From Marinilabiliaceae bacterium (GTDB lineage: Bacteria; Bacteroidota; Bacteroidia; Bacteroidales; Marinilabiliaceae): 64,000 nt of DNA. This document shows, in pieces, positions 3,379 to 62,103 of this stretch. How positions within the stretch are numbered: position 1 is the stretch's first letter; each line of letters starts with the position of its first letter. The stretch covers positions 2,812-66,811 of the forward strand of contig JBNKRV010000211.1 of NCBI GenBank assembly GCA_050296935.1, written 5' to 3'. The notes below the pieces were generated by a model that made no database searches, had not been told where the DNA came from, and saw only the letters and a list, made by a program, of their open reading frames with translations. The position numbers and the translations under genes were made by a program.

Positions 3379-3594
3379 ATGTACTCTCAAGATATCAATG
3401 CCCAATTACTAGAACTTATTCTACCTGCAGGGATTTTAGAACACTTTACAATTACAGACTTCCATCAGGAAGCCAGTGGTCAGAATTTATATACCAAGAA
3501 ACTTACGATCCATTTAGAGGAGAAGAAAGTTGTACCTGAGGAATATATGTCGATTATACATTTAAAGCAAGTGGATTTATGCCTGCCAGGTTAA
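3379..3594 (+). pseudogene. possible N-terminal remnant of a Bacteroidota-type transposase
   Basis: LLELILPAGILEHFTITDF...LTIHLEEKKVVPEEY resembles, from memory, the N-terminus of a transposase class common in Bacteroidota. The ORF ends after 71 aa, an adjacent frame continues as FKASGFMPAR for a few codons, and no catalytic domain follows. Confidence 0.3.
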
Positions 3595-3599
3595 TTAAT

Positions 3600-3685
3600 G
3601 GGTAATCCATTTATATTTCAATACAGCCTCCGGTATGGAGGTGTGTAGGCAACCCTGTGGTAGAGGCCAGGTGCTGTGTTGCTTT
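3600..3685. repeat. Y-like module fragment downstream of the GNAT stop codon
   Basis: Shares GGAGGTGTG(A)TAGG with 4617-4631 and contains the hairpin CCTCC-GGTAT-GGAGG. Confidence 0.4.
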
Positions 3686-4216
3686 TTAAATGTAATCCGT
3701 TTTATCTTTGTTTTCAATCATGAATTCACAAAAAAAATCTCCACTATCAGTTTGTCCCTCATTAATCAGACTCATACCACAACTTTCTGATAGTTTAATC
3801 GAGGCAATATTTTGTTTAAACATACGTGCAGTTAATTTCTCTAGTTTTAATTTTTGAAATCCATAATCAATCAATGAATTACAAATCTCAGAGCCATATC
3901 CCTTTCTCCAGAATCTATTATCTAGAATGTATCCTAACTCCAGATGTTTTAAATTTTGAAATGAATTAAACAATCCAGCTTCTCCAATTATAGAATCAGT
4001 GTTTTTGGTCAGAACTGTGAATATTCCAAATCCGTTATTGTAATCCTGATTTATTTTATCGTATTTCTCTTTGAGTTTTTCTTTAGTCCATTTAAAATCT
4101 GAATTTGGGATGTAAATCATATTTTTTGAGTCGTTTAAAATCTTGAGTAAAGAGTTTAAATCATCACTTTTAACTTCTCTAATCCAAAGTCTTTGGGTTT
4201 CAATTATAATATTCAT
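3686..4216 (-). CDS. GNAT family N-acetyltransferase (RimJ/RimL-like)
   Basis: 176 aa. The N-terminal ETQRLWIRE and the WRKGYGSE acetyl-CoA loop are typical of the Acetyltransf_3/RimJ class. Confidence 0.85.
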   Translation of the reverse strand: MNIIIETQRLWIREVKSDDLNSLLKILNDSKNMIYIPNSDFKWTKEKLKEKYDKINQDYNNGFGIFTVLTKNTDSIIGEAGLFNSFQNLKHLELGYILDNRFWRKGYGSEICNSLIDYGFQKLKLEKLTARMFKQNIASIKLSESCGMSLINEGQTDSGDFFCEFMIENKDKTDYI

Positions 4217-4356
4217 TTTTTAATCCGGGAATTAAATTTAAATCTCCATTTTTATCTTTCTATTTGTAAAATGCAGGGGGGTGATGCCTCATGGTGTTCA
4301 GTGTATGATTTCGGAGAGCGTTCCTGTTGACCGTTACGCTTTATTTTAATAAATAA

Positions 4357-4494
4357 GCAGTAGTACACTCACACCTGACGTTCTTGAAAAAGTTTAAAAA
4401 TACAAATTATCTTCAGTAAATCTGGATTGTGGGTATTTTTTATCCTTAGGGTGTAAGCCTCAAGTGGGCGGTCTGGCTGCTGCAGGATCGAACC
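4357..4494. repeat. array repeat module X, copy 1
   Basis: Near-identical to 6104..6238 (2 substitutions, at 4446 and 4463) and to 8984..9105. Confidence 0.85.
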
Positions 4495-4568
4495 GTTAAC
4501 AAGTGATACCTTTTTGCCTCAGCAAAATCGTAGTGGTTGACGGTGACGATAGTAGTCAAGGTTTTTTT
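4493..4568. repeat. array repeat module Z, copy 1 (nested hairpin plus T7 run)
   Basis: CCGTTAAC ... GTTGACGG outer stem enclosing TTTTGC-CTCA-GCAAAA. Alignable with 9104..9178. Confidence 0.75.
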
Positions 4569-4666
4569 GAGCGATGATATACCAGAAGAACCGCTGTATG
4601 CGAGGCTTGTATGTACGGAGGTGTGATAGGTGTATTAGTGGGTAAGCTCACTGGCCATCTGCTCGA
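4569..4666. repeat. array repeat module Y-like, abutting the stop of ORF 4667..5206
   Basis: The start, GATGATATACCAGAAGAACCGCTGTATGC, aligns with 6269-6297 and 7816-7842. It also carries the GATAGG motif at 4626-4631. Confidence 0.6.
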
Positions 4667-5206
4667 TTACAGCACGTTTTTCTTTTTGTCAATCAGTCTT
4701 TTTGAAGCTATCACCCAATGCTCCACGTACTTTTCAGGATTATCAACAACCTCCTGTAAATCATCAATTGATTTATGCTCGTGTTTTTTCATAAAACTAA
4801 TAATCCGTTGTTCATCATTTTCCTTCTTTTCTTCTTCTGTCAATTCTTGCATATTGCCATACAGTATATTAATGATTTTTTTATTAACCGATAAGAACAA
4901 TAAAAGGATTATTAAAATAATGAGATTAAATCCGAAAGAGTCAATTCCCCAAATGGTAATTGAAAATCCAAAATCAATATGCGAAAATTTAATAAGATTT
5001 AAAGTCCCAAGAACTAATAATACTCCTAAAATATAATTACTTAGTTGAACTGATTTTAAGCGAATAGCAAAAGAAGCCAACACACAAACCAATCCAATGT
5101 AAAATTTATTGTCTACTACATAATTGGTCAATAAGCTCAATATTAGTGAAAATATTGAGGAAGAAATCAGTAAGGTGTAAATTGAAAGTTCTATAGTCTT
5201 TTTCAT
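4667..5206 (-). CDS. hypothetical membrane protein (about 4 TM helices, charged C-terminal tail)
   Basis: 179-aa ORF with a hydrophobic N-terminal two thirds. No family was recognised. Confidence 0.55.
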   Translation of the reverse strand: MKKTIELSIYTLLISSSIFSLILSLLTNYVVDNKFYIGLVCVLASFAIRLKSVQLSNYILGVLLVLGTLNLIKFSHIDFGFSITIWGIDSFGFNLIILIILLLFLSVNKKIINILYGNMQELTEEEKKENDEQRIISFMKKHEHKSIDDLQEVVDNPEKYVEHWVIASKRLIDKKKNVL

Positions 5207-5306
5207 TAAAGATTCTTTTTAATTTTCATGTTTAGTTCAACAAAACCTCCTCTAATAAAGCGTATGAAAACAACGCTTTATTAGAGCTTAGTGTTGCCAG
5301 TAGTTT

Positions 5307-5957
5307 TTAATTCAATTTGTATGGAATTCTATTTTTCACTTCTCTGATAATTGGATTTGTAATCAACATTGGCGTCGTAAAATACATTCCTTGATTCCAA
5401 TGATTAAATTGCCATATCAAATCTCCTGATTTCCCATCATAAATTTGATTTATAATTTTGACTTCAGAAGTAGGTTCCGTTGAATAAGAACCTGTTGTCA
5501 AGGCCATTATATAATCTTTTGCTAATTCTCCTGCTTGGCTACTTGTAGATGCAGTCCTTACGCAATAAATAAATACTGCGTCGGCGTTCAAATCGCGTGC
5601 AATTTTGGGTATTTGGTCAATTGAGAATTTCTTGTCACCATCTTCAATCCGTTTTGCGAAATACTGGTCAATAATCTTTAAGTCTATAATTTCGATACCT
5701 AATGATTCCTCTTTTAATTTTTCAACTAATTTTTCCCTAAACGCTAATCCGAAAAATTGATCAACAGGGTATTTATCCATATGTGGTTGTTGGTTATTCA
5801 ATTCTGTCTTCAAGTCAAAATTAATTGGCAATACCGCCAATGTTTTATGCTCTTGCGTTAAAGTTTTATATTTCTCTGGATAATAAACTTTAGTACAGCT
5901 GATTAACATAAATATTATCAATCCTAAAATCTGAAATTTAAAGTTCTTGGTTTTCAT
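5307..5957 (-). CDS. hypothetical lipoprotein
   Basis: The internal ATG at 5957 gives MKTKNFKFQILGLIIFMLISC, a lipoprotein signal peptide with lipobox Cys. The upstream part of ORF 5307..6068 runs toward the X2 repeat (6104-6238) and is unlikely to be coding. Confidence 0.65.
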   Translation of the reverse strand: MKTKNFKFQILGLIIFMLISCTKVYYPEKYKTLTQEHKTLAVLPINFDLKTELNNQQPHMDKYPVDQFFGLAFREKLVEKLKEESLGIEIIDLKIIDQYFAKRIEDGDKKFSIDQIPKIARDLNADAVFIYCVRTASTSSQAGELAKDYIMALTTGSYSTEPTSEVKIINQIYDGKSGDLIWQFNHWNQGMYFTTPMLITNPIIREVKNRIPYKLN

Positions 5958-6103
5958 TAGCAATGTGTCTGTTTTTAAATTACTGGCAACGTTACAGCTT
6001 TGGTCTGAGCCGCCACTTTCTAAATACAACTCCAAAATCAGACTCTGTATCCAAACGAGCTGCGGCATTAGCTATCAGCTGCTGTGTGAGCCCTGCATGA
6101 GTA

Positions 6104-6238
6104 GCAGTACACTCACACCTGACGTTCTTGAAAAAGTTTAAAAATACAAATTATCTTCAGTAAATCTGGATTGTGGGTATTTTTTATCCGTAGGGTGTAA
6201 GCCTCACGTGGGCGGTCTGGCTGCTGCAGGATCGAACC
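6104..6238. repeat. array repeat module X, copy 2
   Basis: See 4357..4494. Confidence 0.85.
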
Positions 6239-6262
6239 ACCAGCAACAGTGAAGTTTTTTTT

Positions 6263-6425
6263 GAGGGATAGTATACCGGATGAACCGCCGTATATGCTTG
6301 ATGTGAAAGCTCAGGTAGAGCTTTTATCGAAAAGAATAAGCGTAGCTACCTGTATGTAGGTACAATGAGAGGCTTTCAGATAGGCACTTATCCAGTTGGT
6401 TGGCTACTTGAATGTACGCTGGTAT
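6263..6425. repeat. array repeat module Y, abutting the stop of the ATPase gene
   Basis: Alignable with 7812..7951. Both have the hairpin AAAGCTC-loop-GAGCTTT with different loops, the palindrome GTAGCTAC, and a GATAGG motif. Confidence 0.75.
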
Positions 6426-7547
6426 TTATTTTATTACTACAAAATCTCTAAAATTAGTTCTGTCAATCACTTCTTCTTTTGCATTATAAGTATTCACAAA
6501 TGTCTTTGGTAGTTTAACTTTCTTTTTGGAATTCCATTTAAATTCGTATCCAATTAGTTGACCATTTATTTCTTCAACAAGATCAACTTCTTGCTGTTGC
6601 TGAGTGCGCCAAAAATACATTTTCGCATAACTGTTTTTGTAATTATTCTGTTTTACTCTTTCTGTGATTAGAAAATTTTCCCACAAAGCTCCTGTATCCT
6701 GCCGAAGATCTAAACTGTTAAAATTCCCAAGAATCATATTCCTTACACCATTATCATAAAAGTATATTTTCCTGTTCTTTTTTATTTCATTTCTTAGATT
6801 CTTACTATAAGCATTAAGCCTATAAACAACAAAACCTTTCTCCAGGATATCAATATAATTTGATACCGTGTTTTTATCGACTCCAACAATTTGAGATAAT
6901 TCGTTGTAATTTACTTCACTTCCGATCTGTAATGCCAATGCTTGAACTAATTTCTCTAGTACTTCTGGCTTTCGTATATTTGAATATGCTAGAATATCCC
7001 GATATAAATAACTGTTTACAAGTTGTTTTAATATTTCCTTTTCCTCTCCTGGGCTATTAAGAATATCTGGATAAAAACCATACAATAATCTGTTTTCGAC
7101 TTGTTGTTCAGCCACTAGATATCCATGTGTATCTTCATACTCTTCCCAACTAATAGGGTGTAATTCATACTCCCACTTCTGACCTGTTAATGGCTCATTT
7201 AATTCTTGAGATAAACTAAATGAAGAAGATCCACTCACAAATAATTGAATATCTTTAAATTGATCTGTAATTATTTTTAGAGTTAAACCTATTCCTGATA
7301 TTCTTTGGGCTTCATCTATAAATACAGTTTTGTATTTACCTAATATTGATCTTATTTGCTCTGTATTCGGATTGTTGAGTAAGCTTCGAACCGTAGGATC
7401 ATCAGCATCAAGAAATAAATGCTTTTTATCTGAGACTATCTGATTTATTAAAGTTGTTTTTCCAACTTGTCTTGGGCCAATTAATAGAATAGCCTTTCCC
7501 TTTCCGGTCTTATTATCAATTACTCTTCTTAATGTCCGTGAATACAT
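6426..7547 (-). CDS. AAA family ATPase with DUF4143-type C-terminal domain
   Basis: Walker A GPRQVGKTT and Walker B FIDEAQ. Length and C-terminal layout are typical of the AAA_14/DUF4143 class. Confidence 0.85.
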   Translation of the reverse strand: MYSRTLRRVIDNKTGKGKAILLIGPRQVGKTTLINQIVSDKKHLFLDADDPTVRSLLNNPNTEQIRSILGKYKTVFIDEAQRISGIGLTLKIITDQFKDIQLFVSGSSSFSLSQELNEPLTGQKWEYELHPISWEEYEDTHGYLVAEQQVENRLLYGFYPDILNSPGEEKEILKQLVNSYLYRDILAYSNIRKPEVLEKLVQALALQIGSEVNYNELSQIVGVDKNTVSNYIDILEKGFVVYRLNAYSKNLRNEIKKNRKIYFYDNGVRNMILGNFNSLDLRQDTGALWENFLITERVKQNNYKNSYAKMYFWRTQQQQEVDLVEEINGQLIGYEFKWNSKKKVKLPKTFVNTYNAKEEVIDRTNFRDFVVIK

Positions 7548-7655
7548 ATCTCTAATTTTAATTCAAATATATGCAATAAGTATTGTATTCACCAATTACT
7601 ATATTATTATGTGAATTAATTTATCGTTTGGATTTTTTGCTTGTGTACAATGGTA

Positions 7656-7713
7656 AGTAGTGCCTGTTCATTAAGTCTGGTGTCTGGACTTTATAGACGA
7701 ACACAAAGTAGAC
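7656..7713 (-). repeat. MITE-like repeat family 1, internally deleted mini copy D
   Basis: The two terminal repeats AGTGCCTGTTCATTAAGTC and GGACTTTATAGACGAACAC are joined by about 8 nt. The flanks TAAGTAGTG / AAAGTAGAC match copy A. Confidence 0.65.
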
Positions 7714-7811
7714 ACTTGCGGGCTTCAGACTTGTCAAATCATTACCGAATTGAAGCGGACTGCAAACTTTGAGTTTGCAAGACCTTTCTTAAAGTGTTGA
7801 AAAGAGCTGTT

Positions 7812-7951
7812 GTAGTATTCCGGATGAACCGCCATGTATGCTTGGTGTGAAAGCTCTGATAGAGCTTTTAACGAAAAGAACAAGCGTAGCTACCTGTACA
7901 TGCGTTGGAGATAGAGGTTCTCTGATAGGTCAGCCTGTCGGCTGCCTATGA
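7812..7951. repeat. array repeat module Y, abutting the stop of GNAT 7952..8512
   Basis: Alignable with 6263..6425. It ends in the inverted repeat ATAGG(T)CAGCC-TGTC-GGCTGCCTAT at 7925-7949, 2 nt from the stop codon. Confidence 0.75.
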
Positions 7952-8512
7952 TTAGCGGTTTGTTGTTAATTTATTTCTAGTCATTATTACATTATCAATA
8001 TACTCTCCGAATTTTGTTTTTATAAATCCCTTCTGCCTACCAGTTTCTTCAAATCCCATGTTTGAATATATCTGTAATCCTTTTTTATTGTTGCTGAAAG
8101 CTTGTAGCCAAAGAATTTCAATATCTGGATTTTGGTCAACCCAATCAATAATAACTTTAAACATTGCTGTCCCGATTCCTTGTCCTTGCCATTCCTCATG
8201 AATTCCCATCCCTATGTAGCCAGTATGTTTCAGCATTTGTCGACCATTAATCATTAAGTCAATATTTCCGACAATAGTACCTTCATGTTCTGCAATTAAT
8301 AACAAATCATTTTTTCCATCTATAAATTTTCTAATCCATTCTTCGTGATTTTTAGCAAGTTCATTAAACTCTGCTTCAGTTAAAGGAATCAGTTTGCTTT
8401 TCAGATATGATTTAACACATTTTTGCAATTCTACCGAATCAGAAATCTTACCTTCTCTTATTAAAATCCGGTTTCCCTGTTTATCAATTATTTCTTGTGG
8501 TTCTATTTTCAT
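7952..8512 (-). CDS. GNAT family N-acetyltransferase
   Basis: 186 aa. The QGQGIGTAMF acetyl-CoA binding loop and overall layout are typical of GNAT proteins. Confidence 0.85.
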   Translation of the reverse strand: MKIEPQEIIDKQGNRILIREGKISDSVELQKCVKSYLKSKLIPLTEAEFNELAKNHEEWIRKFIDGKNDLLLIAEHEGTIVGNIDLMINGRQMLKHTGYIGMGIHEEWQGQGIGTAMFKVIIDWVDQNPDIEILWLQAFSNNKKGLQIYSNMGFEETGRQKGFIKTKFGEYIDNVIMTRNKLTTNR

Positions 8513-8522
8513 TTCAATTCTA

Positions 8523-8942
8523 TTAACTAGGAGTTGATACAGATTCCATAAATATCACGTGGTACTTGATTAATTCAAATCCAGACTTTTTATATAATCC
8601 ATGAGCATCATCAGTTGCTAATTCCCAGCGTTGAAGGTTTTGTAGTTCAGCATGATTCATTATTGATTTCATAAGTTTTACTCCCAAACCTTGTTTTCTG
8701 TACTCTTTCAAGATAAAAACATCTAAAATTCATGCAAAGACTGCGGAATCAGATACAACGCGGGCAAATCCAATTTGCTGTGAATCCATATAAACGCCAA
8801 AACAAAGTGAATTGTCAACAGATTTTCGAATCGTCTCAAGACTTCGACCTTTTGCCCAATAGGAGTCATTATTTAAGAAATCAAGAATCAACTTGACATC
8901 AGGCTTTTCTTTATCAGTCGATATATAAATTTCGTTATTCAT
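8523..8942 (-). pseudogene. GNAT family N-acetyltransferase interrupted by one in-frame TGA
   Basis: ORFs 8730..8942 and 8523..8711 are in the same frame. Reading through the TGA at 8730-8732 gives ...SDSAVFA-x-ILDVFILKEYRKQGLG..., a continuous GNAT core with Trp (TGG) expected at x. Confidence 0.7.
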
Positions 8943-8983
8943 TAATTTATGTTTGCAATGTCGTATTTTTCAATAACCGCTAA

Positions 8984-9105
8984 CCTGACGTTCTTGAAAA
9001 AGTTTAAAAATACAAATTATCTTCAGTAAATCTGGATTGTGGGTATTTTTTTATCCGTAGGGTGTAAGCCTCAAGTGGGTAGTCTGGCTGCTGCAGGATT
9101 GAACC
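8984..9105. repeat. array repeat module X, copy 3
   Basis: See 4357..4494. About 5 differences from copy 2. Confidence 0.85.
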
Positions 9106-9178
9106 GTTAACAAGAGATACCTTCTGCCCCGGCAAAATCGTAGTGGTTGACGGTGACGATAGTAGTGAAGTTTTTTTT
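9104..9178. repeat. array repeat module Z, copy 2
   Basis: Same outer stem as 4493..4568. The inner hairpin is kept with a changed loop (CCCG instead of CTCA), and a T8 run follows. Confidence 0.75.
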
Positions 9179-9306
9179 AACGATGATATGCAAGGTGAAC
9201 TTCAGGTATGATGAGTGAGAAGTACACCTTTAGTCTTTTAGCCTATCGGATGCCTACTCCGGTTATGTGTGGTTGTGCATTACTAAACTATTACAATCTC
9301 ATGCGA

Positions 9307-9807
9307 TCAATTTTCCTTAAAATCAGTGATGAATATTTGCGTACTCAATCCTCCATAATAACCATCAGGATAATAACCTGTGCAAATAATCTTTGTAGGA
9401 TAATAATAACTCTCATGGTATTCGACCTCTATTTTAGCTCCAGTCATATGGCTGTCAGAAGAATTAATTTGCTCATTACAACTCTCTACGGTACTATTTA
9501 TATAATTAAATACGTCGTCTATTGTTTCATAGTGTACAAGATCTTTAACCGAATCGTCTGAGTCATTGGACTGGATATAAATTGTATCTAACTCGCCATT
9601 TTTAACGATGGTTATTAATCCAGGTTGTCCGCCATTGTAACTTGCCGATTGCTCTTGAGTAAAAGAATAATCTAACATTCCTCTATTCTCCCATAATTCA
9701 CGATTAGTATGATATGAATCTTGATTAAAAAGCAGTCCAATAGAATCATCCGTATCACTGCATGAAACAATAACGAATGACAGTAATAATAAAAAGATAT
9801 ATTTCAT
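9307..9807 (-). CDS. hypothetical lipoprotein
   Basis: The ATG at 9807 gives MKYIFLLLLSFVIVSC, a lipoprotein signal peptide. The ORF track extends to 9885 without coding-like sequence. Confidence 0.6.
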   Translation of the reverse strand: MKYIFLLLLSFVIVSCSDTDDSIGLLFNQDSYHTNRELWENRGMLDYSFTQEQSASYNGGQPGLITIVKNGELDTIYIQSNDSDDSVKDLVHYETIDDVFNYINSTVESCNEQINSSDSHMTGAKIEVEYHESYYYPTKIICTGYYPDGYYGGLSTQIFITDFKEN

Positions 9808-10077
9808 AGTATAGTATTTAAAGTTTGCTGTTAGATGTATTTTTATTTTAATTGGTTGCGCAAATCTGTTTTTGAGATGAATCATTTTGAAATAAGTAAT
9901 CAGGAGAATCTAACTGTTACAATAAATACTCTATTTGATTCTTTCTACCCAATGAGCATTGTTGTTTATCAGTAAAGTAAGCGGTACGGGGAAAATACAC
10001 TTTAATTCAGGCAGTAGTTGTGTGCAATGATGTATTGTTTCAAAATGCTGGAATGATAGAAAGTCCTGAAGGTTTTG

Positions 10078-10470
10078 TTAGATATGAGCACCATCCACGT
10101 AAACCCATTTCCCATCTTCTTTTTCAAAAAATGATTTCTCGTGAATATGGTTTAATTTTCCATCCTCAATAAAAATGGCTTTGAATTCCACATATCCTGT
10201 TTGATCATTTTCCATTCCTTTTTCTGTGGACGAAATAGAAAGATTGACCCATGTAACGGATTGACTCCATTCTTTTATTTCTCTTTTTTCATTAACAGGT
10301 CTGGTGCTGGAATGATGACTTTTCATCAGGTAATCAATATTGGCTAAAGTAAATGCAGTATATCGTGATCGCATTAATTCTTCTGCAGTAGCAGCATCTT
10401 TTTTATTCTCAATGATTGGTTCGCAACATTGAGAAAAATCTTTATTTGATCCGCAAGGGCATTTTTTCAT
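10078..10470 (-). CDS. ychJ: YchJ family protein (SEC-C motif, UPF0225)
   Basis: CPCGS...FSQCC N-terminal SEC-C metal-binding motif, RSRYTAF, and a length of 130 aa. Confidence 0.8.
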   Translation of the reverse strand: MKKCPCGSNKDFSQCCEPIIENKKDAATAEELMRSRYTAFTLANIDYLMKSHHSSTRPVNEKREIKEWSQSVTWVNLSISSTEKGMENDQTGYVEFKAIFIEDGKLNHIHEKSFFEKEDGKWVYVDGAHI

Positions 10471-10598
10471 GATGGTAATTTTTAGAGTGCAGGTTGCAAA
10501 ATTATACTCTTCTCACAATAAATTATGGACTAAGGAAGAAAATATTTGAAGATTATTAAATTTCACTGGAAGTGAAATTTGCTAGCCTTGGTTTTTAA

Positions 10599-10750
10599 CT
10601 AGTGTTCGCCTATAAAGTCCAGCTACTTCGTTGTTGCTCATAATACAAATCCTCATATACCCTGGTATACTGCGGTTTGTGTTTTTCACACGCCTTGTGT
10701 TTTAACTTTATAGCCCCAACGTCCCACTTTATAGACAGTCACTAATAGTC
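10599..10750 (+). repeat. MITE-like hairpin repeat family 1, copy B (full length)
   Basis: Co-linear with copy A (1647..1806) in the same orientation. Confidence 0.8.
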
Positions 10751-49520: not shown

Positions 49521-49563
49521 GCTCTCCTATAGACTTATTAACCAGAGTTCGACATAAAAATTT

Positions 49564-49752
49564 GGATTTATCGCATATAATTAATGATTATATAGATATT
49601 CGATAGAACTATGTTTCAGACCGTTTATAAATAGTCAGATTCAACTCAATATTCAGACTATTATAAAGAATTTTTGAGATGAAGATCGCTGTTTATATGA
49701 GGAAAACTAAAGTTTTTGCCCTAAAAAGCTGATTTACTGCGTTAAATTTTAA
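49564..49752 (+). repeat. repeat family 3, copy a (interrupted by an insertion of about 90 nt)
   Basis: 49564-49640 and 49731-49752 align with 57241-57333. Contains the near-palindrome ATATAATT-AAT-GATTATAT at 49575-49593. Confidence 0.75.
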
Positions 49753-57016: not shown

Positions 57017-57240
57017 CTATGTATATATTGAATAATTAGTACCATCATTTATTCAATTATATATCAGGAAATTAAGTATTGTATATGCTTGTATTATTGG
57101 AATTTCCTTCAAAATATGGTAGGCTTTGTTGTAGAAGGATGGAAATTTATTCATTTAAAACACAAACTCAATACTTTTTTCAATGAGATTATTCTGTATT
57201 ATTTAAAATATCTAATAGCCTGAGTTTGATATAAAATTCT

Positions 57241-57333
57241 GAATTTATCTCATATAATCAATGATTATATAGGTATTCGATAGAACTATGTTTCAGACCG
57301 CTTAATAAATAGTGATCTACTGCGTTAAATTTT
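57241..57333 (+). repeat. repeat family 3, copy b (uninterrupted)
   Basis: Aligns with 49564..49752. Perfect palindrome ATATAATC-AAT-GATTATAT at 57252-57270. Confidence 0.75.
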
Positions 57334-61957: not shown

Positions 61958-62103
61958 ACAGTGCCTGTCCATAAAGTCGGGTGTTTGGATTATAAAGTTT
62001 AAAAACAAGGCGTGAGAAAAATTCAAACCGCATCAGTATGTATGAGGATTTGGATTTTGAGCAACAAAGCAGTCGTTGGACTTTATAGACGAACGCAATG
62101 TAG
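61958..62103 (-). repeat. MITE-like hairpin repeat family 1, copy C (full length, inverted)
   Basis: Its reverse complement is co-linear with copies A and B. Confidence 0.8.

Follow-up and report, generated by a model that had tools for sequence, protein, structure and literature searches.

What is a noncoding sequence of about 125-135 nt, kept near-identical in three copies upstream of unrelated genes, doing in the genome of a Marinilabiliaceae bacterium? The sequence, here called module X, lies in a 64,000-nt stretch of DNA that was analysed as a whole (the window), and the first-pass annotation took it for a functional DNA site (a recombination site or portable promoter) or a structured RNA (a leader or antisense sRNA). 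We found three direct copies as claimed, all on the plus strand and about 96% identical, at 4353-4494 (X1), 6084-6238 (X2) and 8983-9105 (X3), and a chance origin of the repeat is excluded. X1 shared 96.5% identity with 6097-6238 of X2 over 142 nt, and 6117-6238 of X2 shared 95.9% with X3. X3 does show the five differences counted earlier, an extra T included; X1 and X2, said to differ at two sites, differ at four within 4357-4494 (4358, 4361, 4446 and 4463). The copies had been located correctly but drawn too short: X2 starts further 5', at 6084 (GTGTGAGCCC...), and the similarity of X1 and X3 runs on at 92% to 4591 and 9200. Further modules are common to the spacers, namely 4512-4568 with 9122-9178 and, at 91% identity, 6269-6354 with 7813-7898. 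The flanking ORFs are indeed unrelated to one another. The distance of 40-155 nt to the next start codon needs one amendment, as X2 lies 36 nt from the start of the longest ORF; from the start at 5957, implied by a shorter 216-residue gene call in the sister assembly L003, the distance is about 127 nt.

Four public runs also contain the locus. So do NCBI metagenome-assembled genomes, GCA_050297775.1 among them, and there the contigs are interrupted at X. The locus was absent from the RNA runs; run X6 yielded just one contig of 239 nt from it, covering 4225-4463. In the contigs of the four runs, where the genome had a depth of about 15x, the AT-rich tract at 4370-4420 reached 650-1,230x (about 40-80 times the genome depth), 4438-4471 about 160x (about 10 times) and the X-specific tail at 4472-4488 about 56x (about 3.6 times). 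Since the AT-rich tract is far deeper than the rest, X belongs as a local form to a much larger family of repeats, which have the tract in common. The 20-mer CAGTAAATCTGGATTGTGGG (4414-4433) had no match in the genome or metagenome contig collections. The search of further genomes proposed by the annotation succeeded with a 22-mer from the AT-rich core, TTGAAAAAGTTTAAAAATACAA, which occurred at 63 loci in Saccharicrinis, Gaoshiqia, Plebeiibacterium, Prolixibacteraceae and other Bacteroidales genomes, often about 27 nt from contig ends. It was also seen on contigs binned as Phycisphaerales, Sphaerotilus and Bacillota (L025, L031 and L058), probably through mis-binning and otherwise through horizontal transfer.

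In the relatives, the 22-mer lies about 45 nt inside elements of about 2.0 kb that begin GTGYGCCCTGCATRAGCAGC (GUGYG). Downstream of it, the sequence matched the Rfam families RF02001 (group-II-D1D4-3; 113-116 bits) and RF01998 (D1D4-1; 37 bits), and the matching segment is followed by a 451-aa ORF with RVT_1 and GIIM domains (TIGR04416, 369 bits). The best solved relatives of the encoded protein are class C reverse transcriptases (7UIM, 329 bits; the GsI-IIC RT 6AR1, 308 bits), and LtrA and 6ME0 scored 125 and 117 bits. The Saccharicrinis segment L062 carries two copies of the intron that are 96% identical over about 2,028 nt, with 3' ends ...GAACCGCTCAGTACGAGACCCGTACGCTGAGTGGTGTGAGAGG...CTACTCGAT (domains V and VI). 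Using blastn, the window copies were aligned to positions 2-136 (X2, 79%), 16-219 (X1) and 36-218 (X3) of this intron. The crystallised group IIC intron of Oceanobacillus iheyensis is, we presume, closely similar in its 5' GUGUGCCC.GCAUG..., its ...AUAGGGUG.AAGUCCCGA... block and its domain V, GAACCGCCGUAUAC...GUACGGUGGUGUG. We conclude that module X is very likely the opening ~125-155 nt, which form the 5' part of domain I, of internally deleted, ORF-less copies of a group IIC intron; the GC-rich block noted within X is conserved ribozyme core. Membership in a group II intron removes the novelty that the first-pass annotation had made dependent on the lack of a match to a known mobile element or RNA family. 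It agrees with the earlier view that X is not neutral spacer and stems from a structured RNA in a mobile or recombination context.

Membership was tested with two covariance models. The first, which spans 193 positions from the 5' end, was built on 38 introns of other genomes and metagenomes that had been picked by a 20-mer at their 5' end and not by the AT-rich tract; within the window it matched only X2, X1 and X3. The second covered domains V-VI of 14 foreign introns. All of the following parts are on the plus strand. X1 matched the first model at 4360-4538 (64.1 bits, E 3.4e-13) and is without the first ~15-20 intron nucleotides, GUGYG included. It belongs to mini-intron 1 (4353-4667), which goes on with the 4512-4568 module, a deletion junction GG-T7-GAG at about 4563-4575 and domains V-VI (second model, 4576-4667, 50.7 bits, E 1e-11), and ends ...CTCGAT. 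X2 (6086-6284, 93.9 bits, E 6e-20) has an intact intron 5' end, GTGTGAGCCCTGCATGAG..., and mini-intron 2 (6084-6413) continues through the junction GAAG-T8-GAG into a degenerate domain V and a domain VI that ends ...CTACTTGAAT; the second model matched this 3' part weakly (6322-6412, 4.6 bits). X3 (8963-9173, 54.4 bits, E 5e-11) is without the first ~35 intron nucleotides and without the whole attC 5' exon. In mini-intron 3 (8983-9263), X3 is followed by the 9122-9178 module, the junction GAAG-T8-AAC, a largely deleted domain V and a domain VI that ends ...CCTACTCCGGT; its 3' part matched the second model weakly (9170-9263, 13.1 bits), and blastn placed intron positions 1978-2022 at 9215-9259. 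In addition, a 3' remnant of the intron at 7813-7951 (weak match to the second model at 7866-7952) consists of a domain V with an insertion of about 60 nt, then domain VI. The insertion (AAGCTC.G.TAGAGCTTTTA.CGAAAAGAA.AAGCGTAGCTACC) is common to mini-intron 2 (6269-6354) and the remnant (7813-7898) and was absent among the full-length relatives examined. A fifth 3' remnant suspected by eye at about 3600-3685 was rejected, as the second model gave it no support with filters off.

The deletion junction is the same in all three copies, GAAG(G)-T7-8-...GAT.(A/G)TAT(A/G)C...GAAC. Each copy jumps from domain I position ~190-230 (...GTGAAG(G)) via the T7-8 run to about 25 nt before domain V, and this single shared deletion takes out the remaining domain I, domains II-IV and the ORF. 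The Rfam search suggested by the annotation, which identified the relatives, returned only tRNAs from the window itself; the group-II-D1D4 models had no match in the window at E<=10 because the parts that they describe are deleted. Likewise, tblastn over the window detected no remnant of a reverse transcriptase or maturase below E 1. As the intron protein is absent from the window, the copies are relics and not complete members of the family. In group IIC introns, domain I beyond ~190-230 carries the exon-binding sites and core contacts. Judged by established group II intron biology, the relics should be unable to form an active ribozyme, to recognise a target, and to splice or move by themselves. 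A mini-intron of about 165 nt was seen on the metagenome contig L183, where about 45 nt of the 5' end are joined straight to domains V-VI (...CTACTTGAT), so the window is not the only place where this intron family has given rise to ORF-less deletion derivatives.

Before the relatives were known, X could be read as independent of introns: it might have been an sRNA, a leader, the end of a MITE or IS, an integration scar derived from a tRNA, or the recombination site. The minus strand of X holds a T-loop-like GGTTCGATCC, each copy is followed on the plus strand by a hairpin and then the T7-8 run, and the length of the repeat resembles that of attC sites. Such readings are now scarcely credible. 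For the tRNA scar (GGTTCGATCC...CCA-like on the minus strand), ARAGORN and Rfam reported only two tRNA-Met genes and nothing for X, and the 'T-loop' segment aligns to a domain I helix of the intron model. For an sRNA with an intrinsic terminator, a terminator scan found none, and the T-run is the shared deletion junction. A leader or sRNA of the flanking genes, as the annotation had proposed, is contradicted by the position of X on the opposite strand, by the lack of an Rfam match in the window and by folds of both strands that were no better than those of shuffled sequences (z-scores -0.2 to -1.6). X has neither terminal inverted repeats nor target-site duplications, as a MITE or IS end would, and it is without the inverted R''/R' cores of an attC site. 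The attC-like sites are separate sequences that adjoin X, which also argues against the earlier reading of X as a recombination site.

The relics lie in an array of eight cassette-like ORFs on the minus strand (3686-10470, by Pfam scans and the ORF list), which encode a GNAT protein, two proteins of unknown function, an AAA_14/DUF4143 protein, a GNAT, a broken GNAT, a DUF6174 and a YchJ/SEC-C protein; two tRNA-Met genes and housekeeping genes surround the array. Decayed introns were found in four of its six inter-cassette spacers. They run on the plus strand, antisense to the cassette genes, and their 3' ends lie 0-13 nt from a cassette stop codon: base 4667, after the end of mini-intron 1, opens the stop codon of the minus-strand ORF 4667-5206, mini-intron 2 ends 13 nt from the stop of ORF 6426-7547, and the 7813-7951 remnant abuts the stop of the GNAT gene 7952-8512. 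The 5' exons are elements of about 100-130 nt that open ..YAAC beside the start of the next gene.

Several other repeats were noted in the window. A ~150-nt element, D2 (1649-1798, 10596-10745 and, inverted, 61960-62094; a mini copy at about 7655-7712), has terminal inverted repeats AGTGTTCGTCTATAAAGTC...GACTTTATGGACGGGCACT and is flanked by CTAAGTAG-like direct repeats. Its contig depth was about 200 times the genome depth in the sample, so this MITE-like repeat is very abundant. The cassette array lies between two of its copies, and the mini copy adjoins a cassette boundary (GTGTACAAT). The segment 3204-3600, at 2.5-7 times the genome depth in the runs and with many indel variants, holds an ORF at 3379-3594 (71 aa, no Pfam match); it is perhaps a piece of some further repeated or IS-like element that lies at the array end. 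The tRNA-Met (CAT) genes, at 1290-1363 and 1438-1511, stand in tandem at the edge of the variable region and are 97% identical. Two intergenic regions share a 92-nt direct repeat of 87% identity (49536-49627 and 57213-57304) that is unrelated to X.

Sequences resembling attC sites, with their bottom strand on the plus strand of the window, were found at the cassette borders. At 9908-10083, an uninterrupted site has perfect inverted cores, ATCTAAC (9908-9914) and GTTAGAT (10077-10083), the latter overlapping the stop codon of ORF 10078-10470; the cores pair in the DNA fold, which is no more stable than the folds of shuffled sequences. The 5' exon of mini-intron 2 (5984-6083) opens TGGCAAC, the complement of R', and is laid out like the 5' exons of the relatives. 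Between the AAA-ATPase and GNAT cassettes, the site at 7713-7812 resembles 5' exons of the L018 type (...TTGCGGGCTTCA.ACTT.TCAAA...TTGAAGCGG...), and a remnant of the 5' half of a site lies at 4285-4340, where 4296-4338 resembles by eye the 5' exons of relatives such as L013. A further cassette boundary at 8977-8984, CCGCTAAC, is the complement of the R' core (GTTAGCGG), and the homology to the Saccharicrinis segment L047 ends there. The window thus shows inverted cores, R'' (..AAC) and R' (GTT..), and a boundary at G|TT. In the window and in the Saccharicrinis segment L043, the 5' boundary of a cassette, G|TTxxxx, is complementary to the R'' of that same cassette. At its end, the GNAT gene 7952-8512 has CCGCTAA, to which the cassette start TTAGCGG (8977-8984, other strand) corresponds; in the ATPase cassette TTGTACAC matches GCGTACAA. 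In L043, the boundary G|TTGGGGCTA of one cassette is the complement of TAGCCCCAA, with which the cassette's own downstream site opens (GTTGGGGCTA/TAGCCCCAA), and the next cassette has GTTGTACAC/GTGTACAAC; the two match at 9/10 and 9/9 positions. We consider it likely that the context of the relics is one of attC sites and cassettes.

No integron integrase was detected among the ORFs of the array and its flanks that were scanned (1-18.5 kb). Near the related arrays, the search for an integrase returned only tyrosine recombinases below the IntI cut-off, each paired with an IS91-family transposase (L004, 990-2946; L024, 83-970, with L062, 6966-7913); they sit inside intron-rich Saccharicrinis cassette arrays. 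Two 24-kb stretches of such arrays, OY762448.1 4.448-4.472 Mb (L047, L062 and L024) and OY760657.1 4.264-4.288 Mb (L004, L063 and L043), hold five core motifs each, most of them in full-length introns and all antisense to runs of small ORFs, a very high intron load. Integrons are rarely reported from Bacteroidota, with one complete integron in IntegronFinder 2.0 (10.1101/2022.02.28.482270). Because no integrase was found among the ORFs scanned and the recombinases of the related arrays belong to IS91 units, the array is best described as, at most, a CALIN, that is, attC sites without an integrase, with the attC sites assigned by manual criteria. Repeats of 120-130 nt that are near-identical, run in one orientation and separate unrelated small genes recall the Vibrio cholerae repeats and other homogeneous attC sites of sedentary chromosomal integrons; unlike these, X is not itself an attC site.

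The Oceanobacillus iheyensis intron inserts after transcription terminators, in sense orientation. In the family studied here, the rejoined exons read ...NT|T... and can be folded into an R-box stem that contains the junction (CGT|T) and an L stem of about 19-20 bp, with asymmetric spacers and a stability not above that of shuffled sequences. In nearly all sites, positions -1 and +1 of the target are T; position -2 is G in about 40% and T in about 40%, and there is no fixed TTGT. IIC-attC introns are known to insert into the bottom strand of attC sites, antisense, at TTGT/T in R'' (PMC3001079, PMC7923331). The present introns agree with these (S.ma.I2 of Serratia marcescens, E.c.I7 and Kl.pn.I1; Leon, Quiroga, Centron & Roy 2010, PMC3001079) in their class C-type protein, in the use of the attC bottom strand at the R'' core between two T's (TTGT/T there, NT|T here), in their antisense position between the stop codon of one cassette and the next cassette, and in arrays without a nearby integrase. 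They differ in their host (Marinilabiliales of the Bacteroidota here, Proteobacteria there), in the G at -2 of only ~40% of targets, in an extra AU-rich domain I hairpin of about 85 nt, in the apparent lack of a counterpart to the sigma-70-type Pout and in that the window copies are ORF-less relics. Truncated introns have likewise been described in integrase-less attC arrays or CALINs (UHB.F1, H.ha.F1/F2; Sonbol & Siam 2021, PMC7923331); unlike the Halorhodospira fragments, which are group IIB 3' parts, those in the window are a IIC 5' part in three copies with one deletion.

The history of the copies could be followed in one relative. Window positions 7913-8984, with two GNAT cassettes, are collinear with Saccharicrinis OY762448.1 at 89-90% identity (by blastn, 8435-8984 corresponds to L047 7999-7449 at 90%). 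OY762448.1 has full-length introns at both flanking sites, which match X3 and the 7813-7951 remnant; the counterpart of the remnant is in L062. At the X3 end, the homology stops exactly at ...GCTAAC, where L047 goes on into the attC site and the window jumps to intron position ~36. Within the collinear segment, an in-frame stop splits the GNAT gene 8523-8942 into ORFs 8730-8942 and 8523-8711, and its homologue in L047 (7483-7911) is an intact ORF of 142 aa. From established group IIC biology, full-length introns of about 2.0 kb would retrohome into single-stranded hairpin DNA, the attC bottom strand, at NT|T in the R'' core, directly after the stop codon of one cassette and upstream of the next; insertion into the bottom strand would account for their antisense orientation to the cassette genes. 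The copies in the window would then have lost the RT gene, most of domain I and domains II-IV in one shared deletion, and two of them their 5' ends in addition. The window copies are 96% identical to each other vs 70-80% to the full-length introns of OY762448.1 and have the deletion in common, which suggests that a single deletion derivative was propagated through the array by recombination or gene conversion between intron copies. Their near-identity would accordingly reflect recent common descent of this derivative and not selection for a cis-regulatory role.

The shared deletion could instead mean that the mini-introns are still mobile and non-autonomous, and that they spread to several attC sites with the help of the RT of full-length copies elsewhere in the genome. 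The identical junction in X1, X2 and X3 would fit this, as would the ~60-nt domain V insertion in both the X2 copy and the 7813-7951 remnant, the well-scoring domains V-VI of mini-intron 1, the depth, which indicates about 10 related, probably full-length copies in the genome, and the ~165-nt mini-intron of L183. However, all copies are without domain I beyond ~190-230, and with it the exon-binding sites and core contacts, X1 and X3 have no GUGYG 5' end, and copies 2 and 3 have a degenerate or deleted domain V. Moreover, the sites of X3 and the 7813-7951 remnant are occupied by full-length introns in the relative, in keeping with decay in place plus gene conversion. We therefore regard continued mobility as quite improbable, and mobilisation in trans as less likely than recombination or gene conversion among decaying introns. 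A point against the reading of X as a mere relic is that the three copies have kept their 5' parts, at 96%, much better than their 3' parts, a possible sign of selection on X.

What the AT-rich tract of X represents became clear from the intron strand of the relatives. Among introns sampled by their 5' end alone, about 65 of 79 have at its position a three-tier hairpin of about 85 nt. Its outer stem shows many compensatory variants between lineages (CCCACACCCGA/TCGGGTGTGGG, CACCTGCTG/CAGCAGGTG, CACTCGTTG/CAACGAGTG and CACCTATT/AATAGGTG), and a AAAUACAAAU-like motif at its apex is unpaired in 29/34 sequences folded one by one. The covariation check that the first-pass annotation had recommended thus turned out positive with more copies, and the small hairpin GGGTA-TTTTT-TATCC that it had drawn gave way to another pairing: in the relatives, GGGTA forms the 3' side of a long stem, opposite CACCC upstream of the AT-rich tract. 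RNAalifold on a MAFFT alignment did not recover the inserted hairpin, as its 3' arm was misaligned, but per-sequence folding did. In the window, at -10.7 kcal/mol, the hairpin is weaker than in most relatives (-15 to -31). This covarying domain I hairpin of about 85 nt, with the AT-rich tract at its apex, is specific to this intron lineage, and the O. iheyensis intron presumably has no such hairpin between its first helix and the AUAGGGUG block. That the tract is conserved across the intron family is explained by the RNA structure of the intron strand, a hairpin whose stems covary.

This bears on the proposal that X is a portable promoter. In published IIC-attC introns, the next cassette is driven by functional outward promoters that lie in domain I (positions ~76-104; PMC3001079). 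By analogy with this proteobacterial Pout, the complementary strand of X might start transcription of the downstream cassette and so restore expression that an antisense intron blocks. The AT-richness of the tract would suit such a co-opted outward promoter, and X, which precedes three start codons by 40-140 nt, has been kept at 96% even as the 3' parts of the introns diverged or were lost. Nevertheless, on the gene strand from X through the start codons, neither TAnnTTTG nor TTTG-N17-23-TAnnTT[T/A][G/A], the canonical Bacteroidota -33/-7 motifs, was present, and scans with sigma-70 and Bacteroidota promoter motifs gave nothing above chance. The published P1out lies elsewhere in domain I, in a non-homologous part, and the conservation of the AT-rich tract already has its explanation in the RNA hairpin. 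An outward promoter, which a motif search can miss, is therefore doubtful. It is also unlikely, if conceivable, that Marinilabiliales possess an undescribed integron-type cassette system with long conserved attC sites and a dedicated group IIC lineage marked by the extra hairpin, in which X stubs, perhaps co-opted as promoters or insulators, would decide cassette expression.

Module X is best understood as retroelement debris of a known class and niche in a new host lineage, which removes a candidate for a novel regulatory or recombination module. At the same time, the introns would extend attC-targeting by group IIC introns to the Bacteroidota, and they define a lineage-specific, covarying domain I hairpin of about 85 nt with a conserved AAAUACAAAU apex. 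The intron is also present in cultured bacteria, namely Plebeiibacterium marinum D04, P. sediminum AAT, Gaoshiqia sediminis A06 and G. hydrogeniformans Z1-71, and these relatives are organisms in which cassette expression and intron mobility can be tested.
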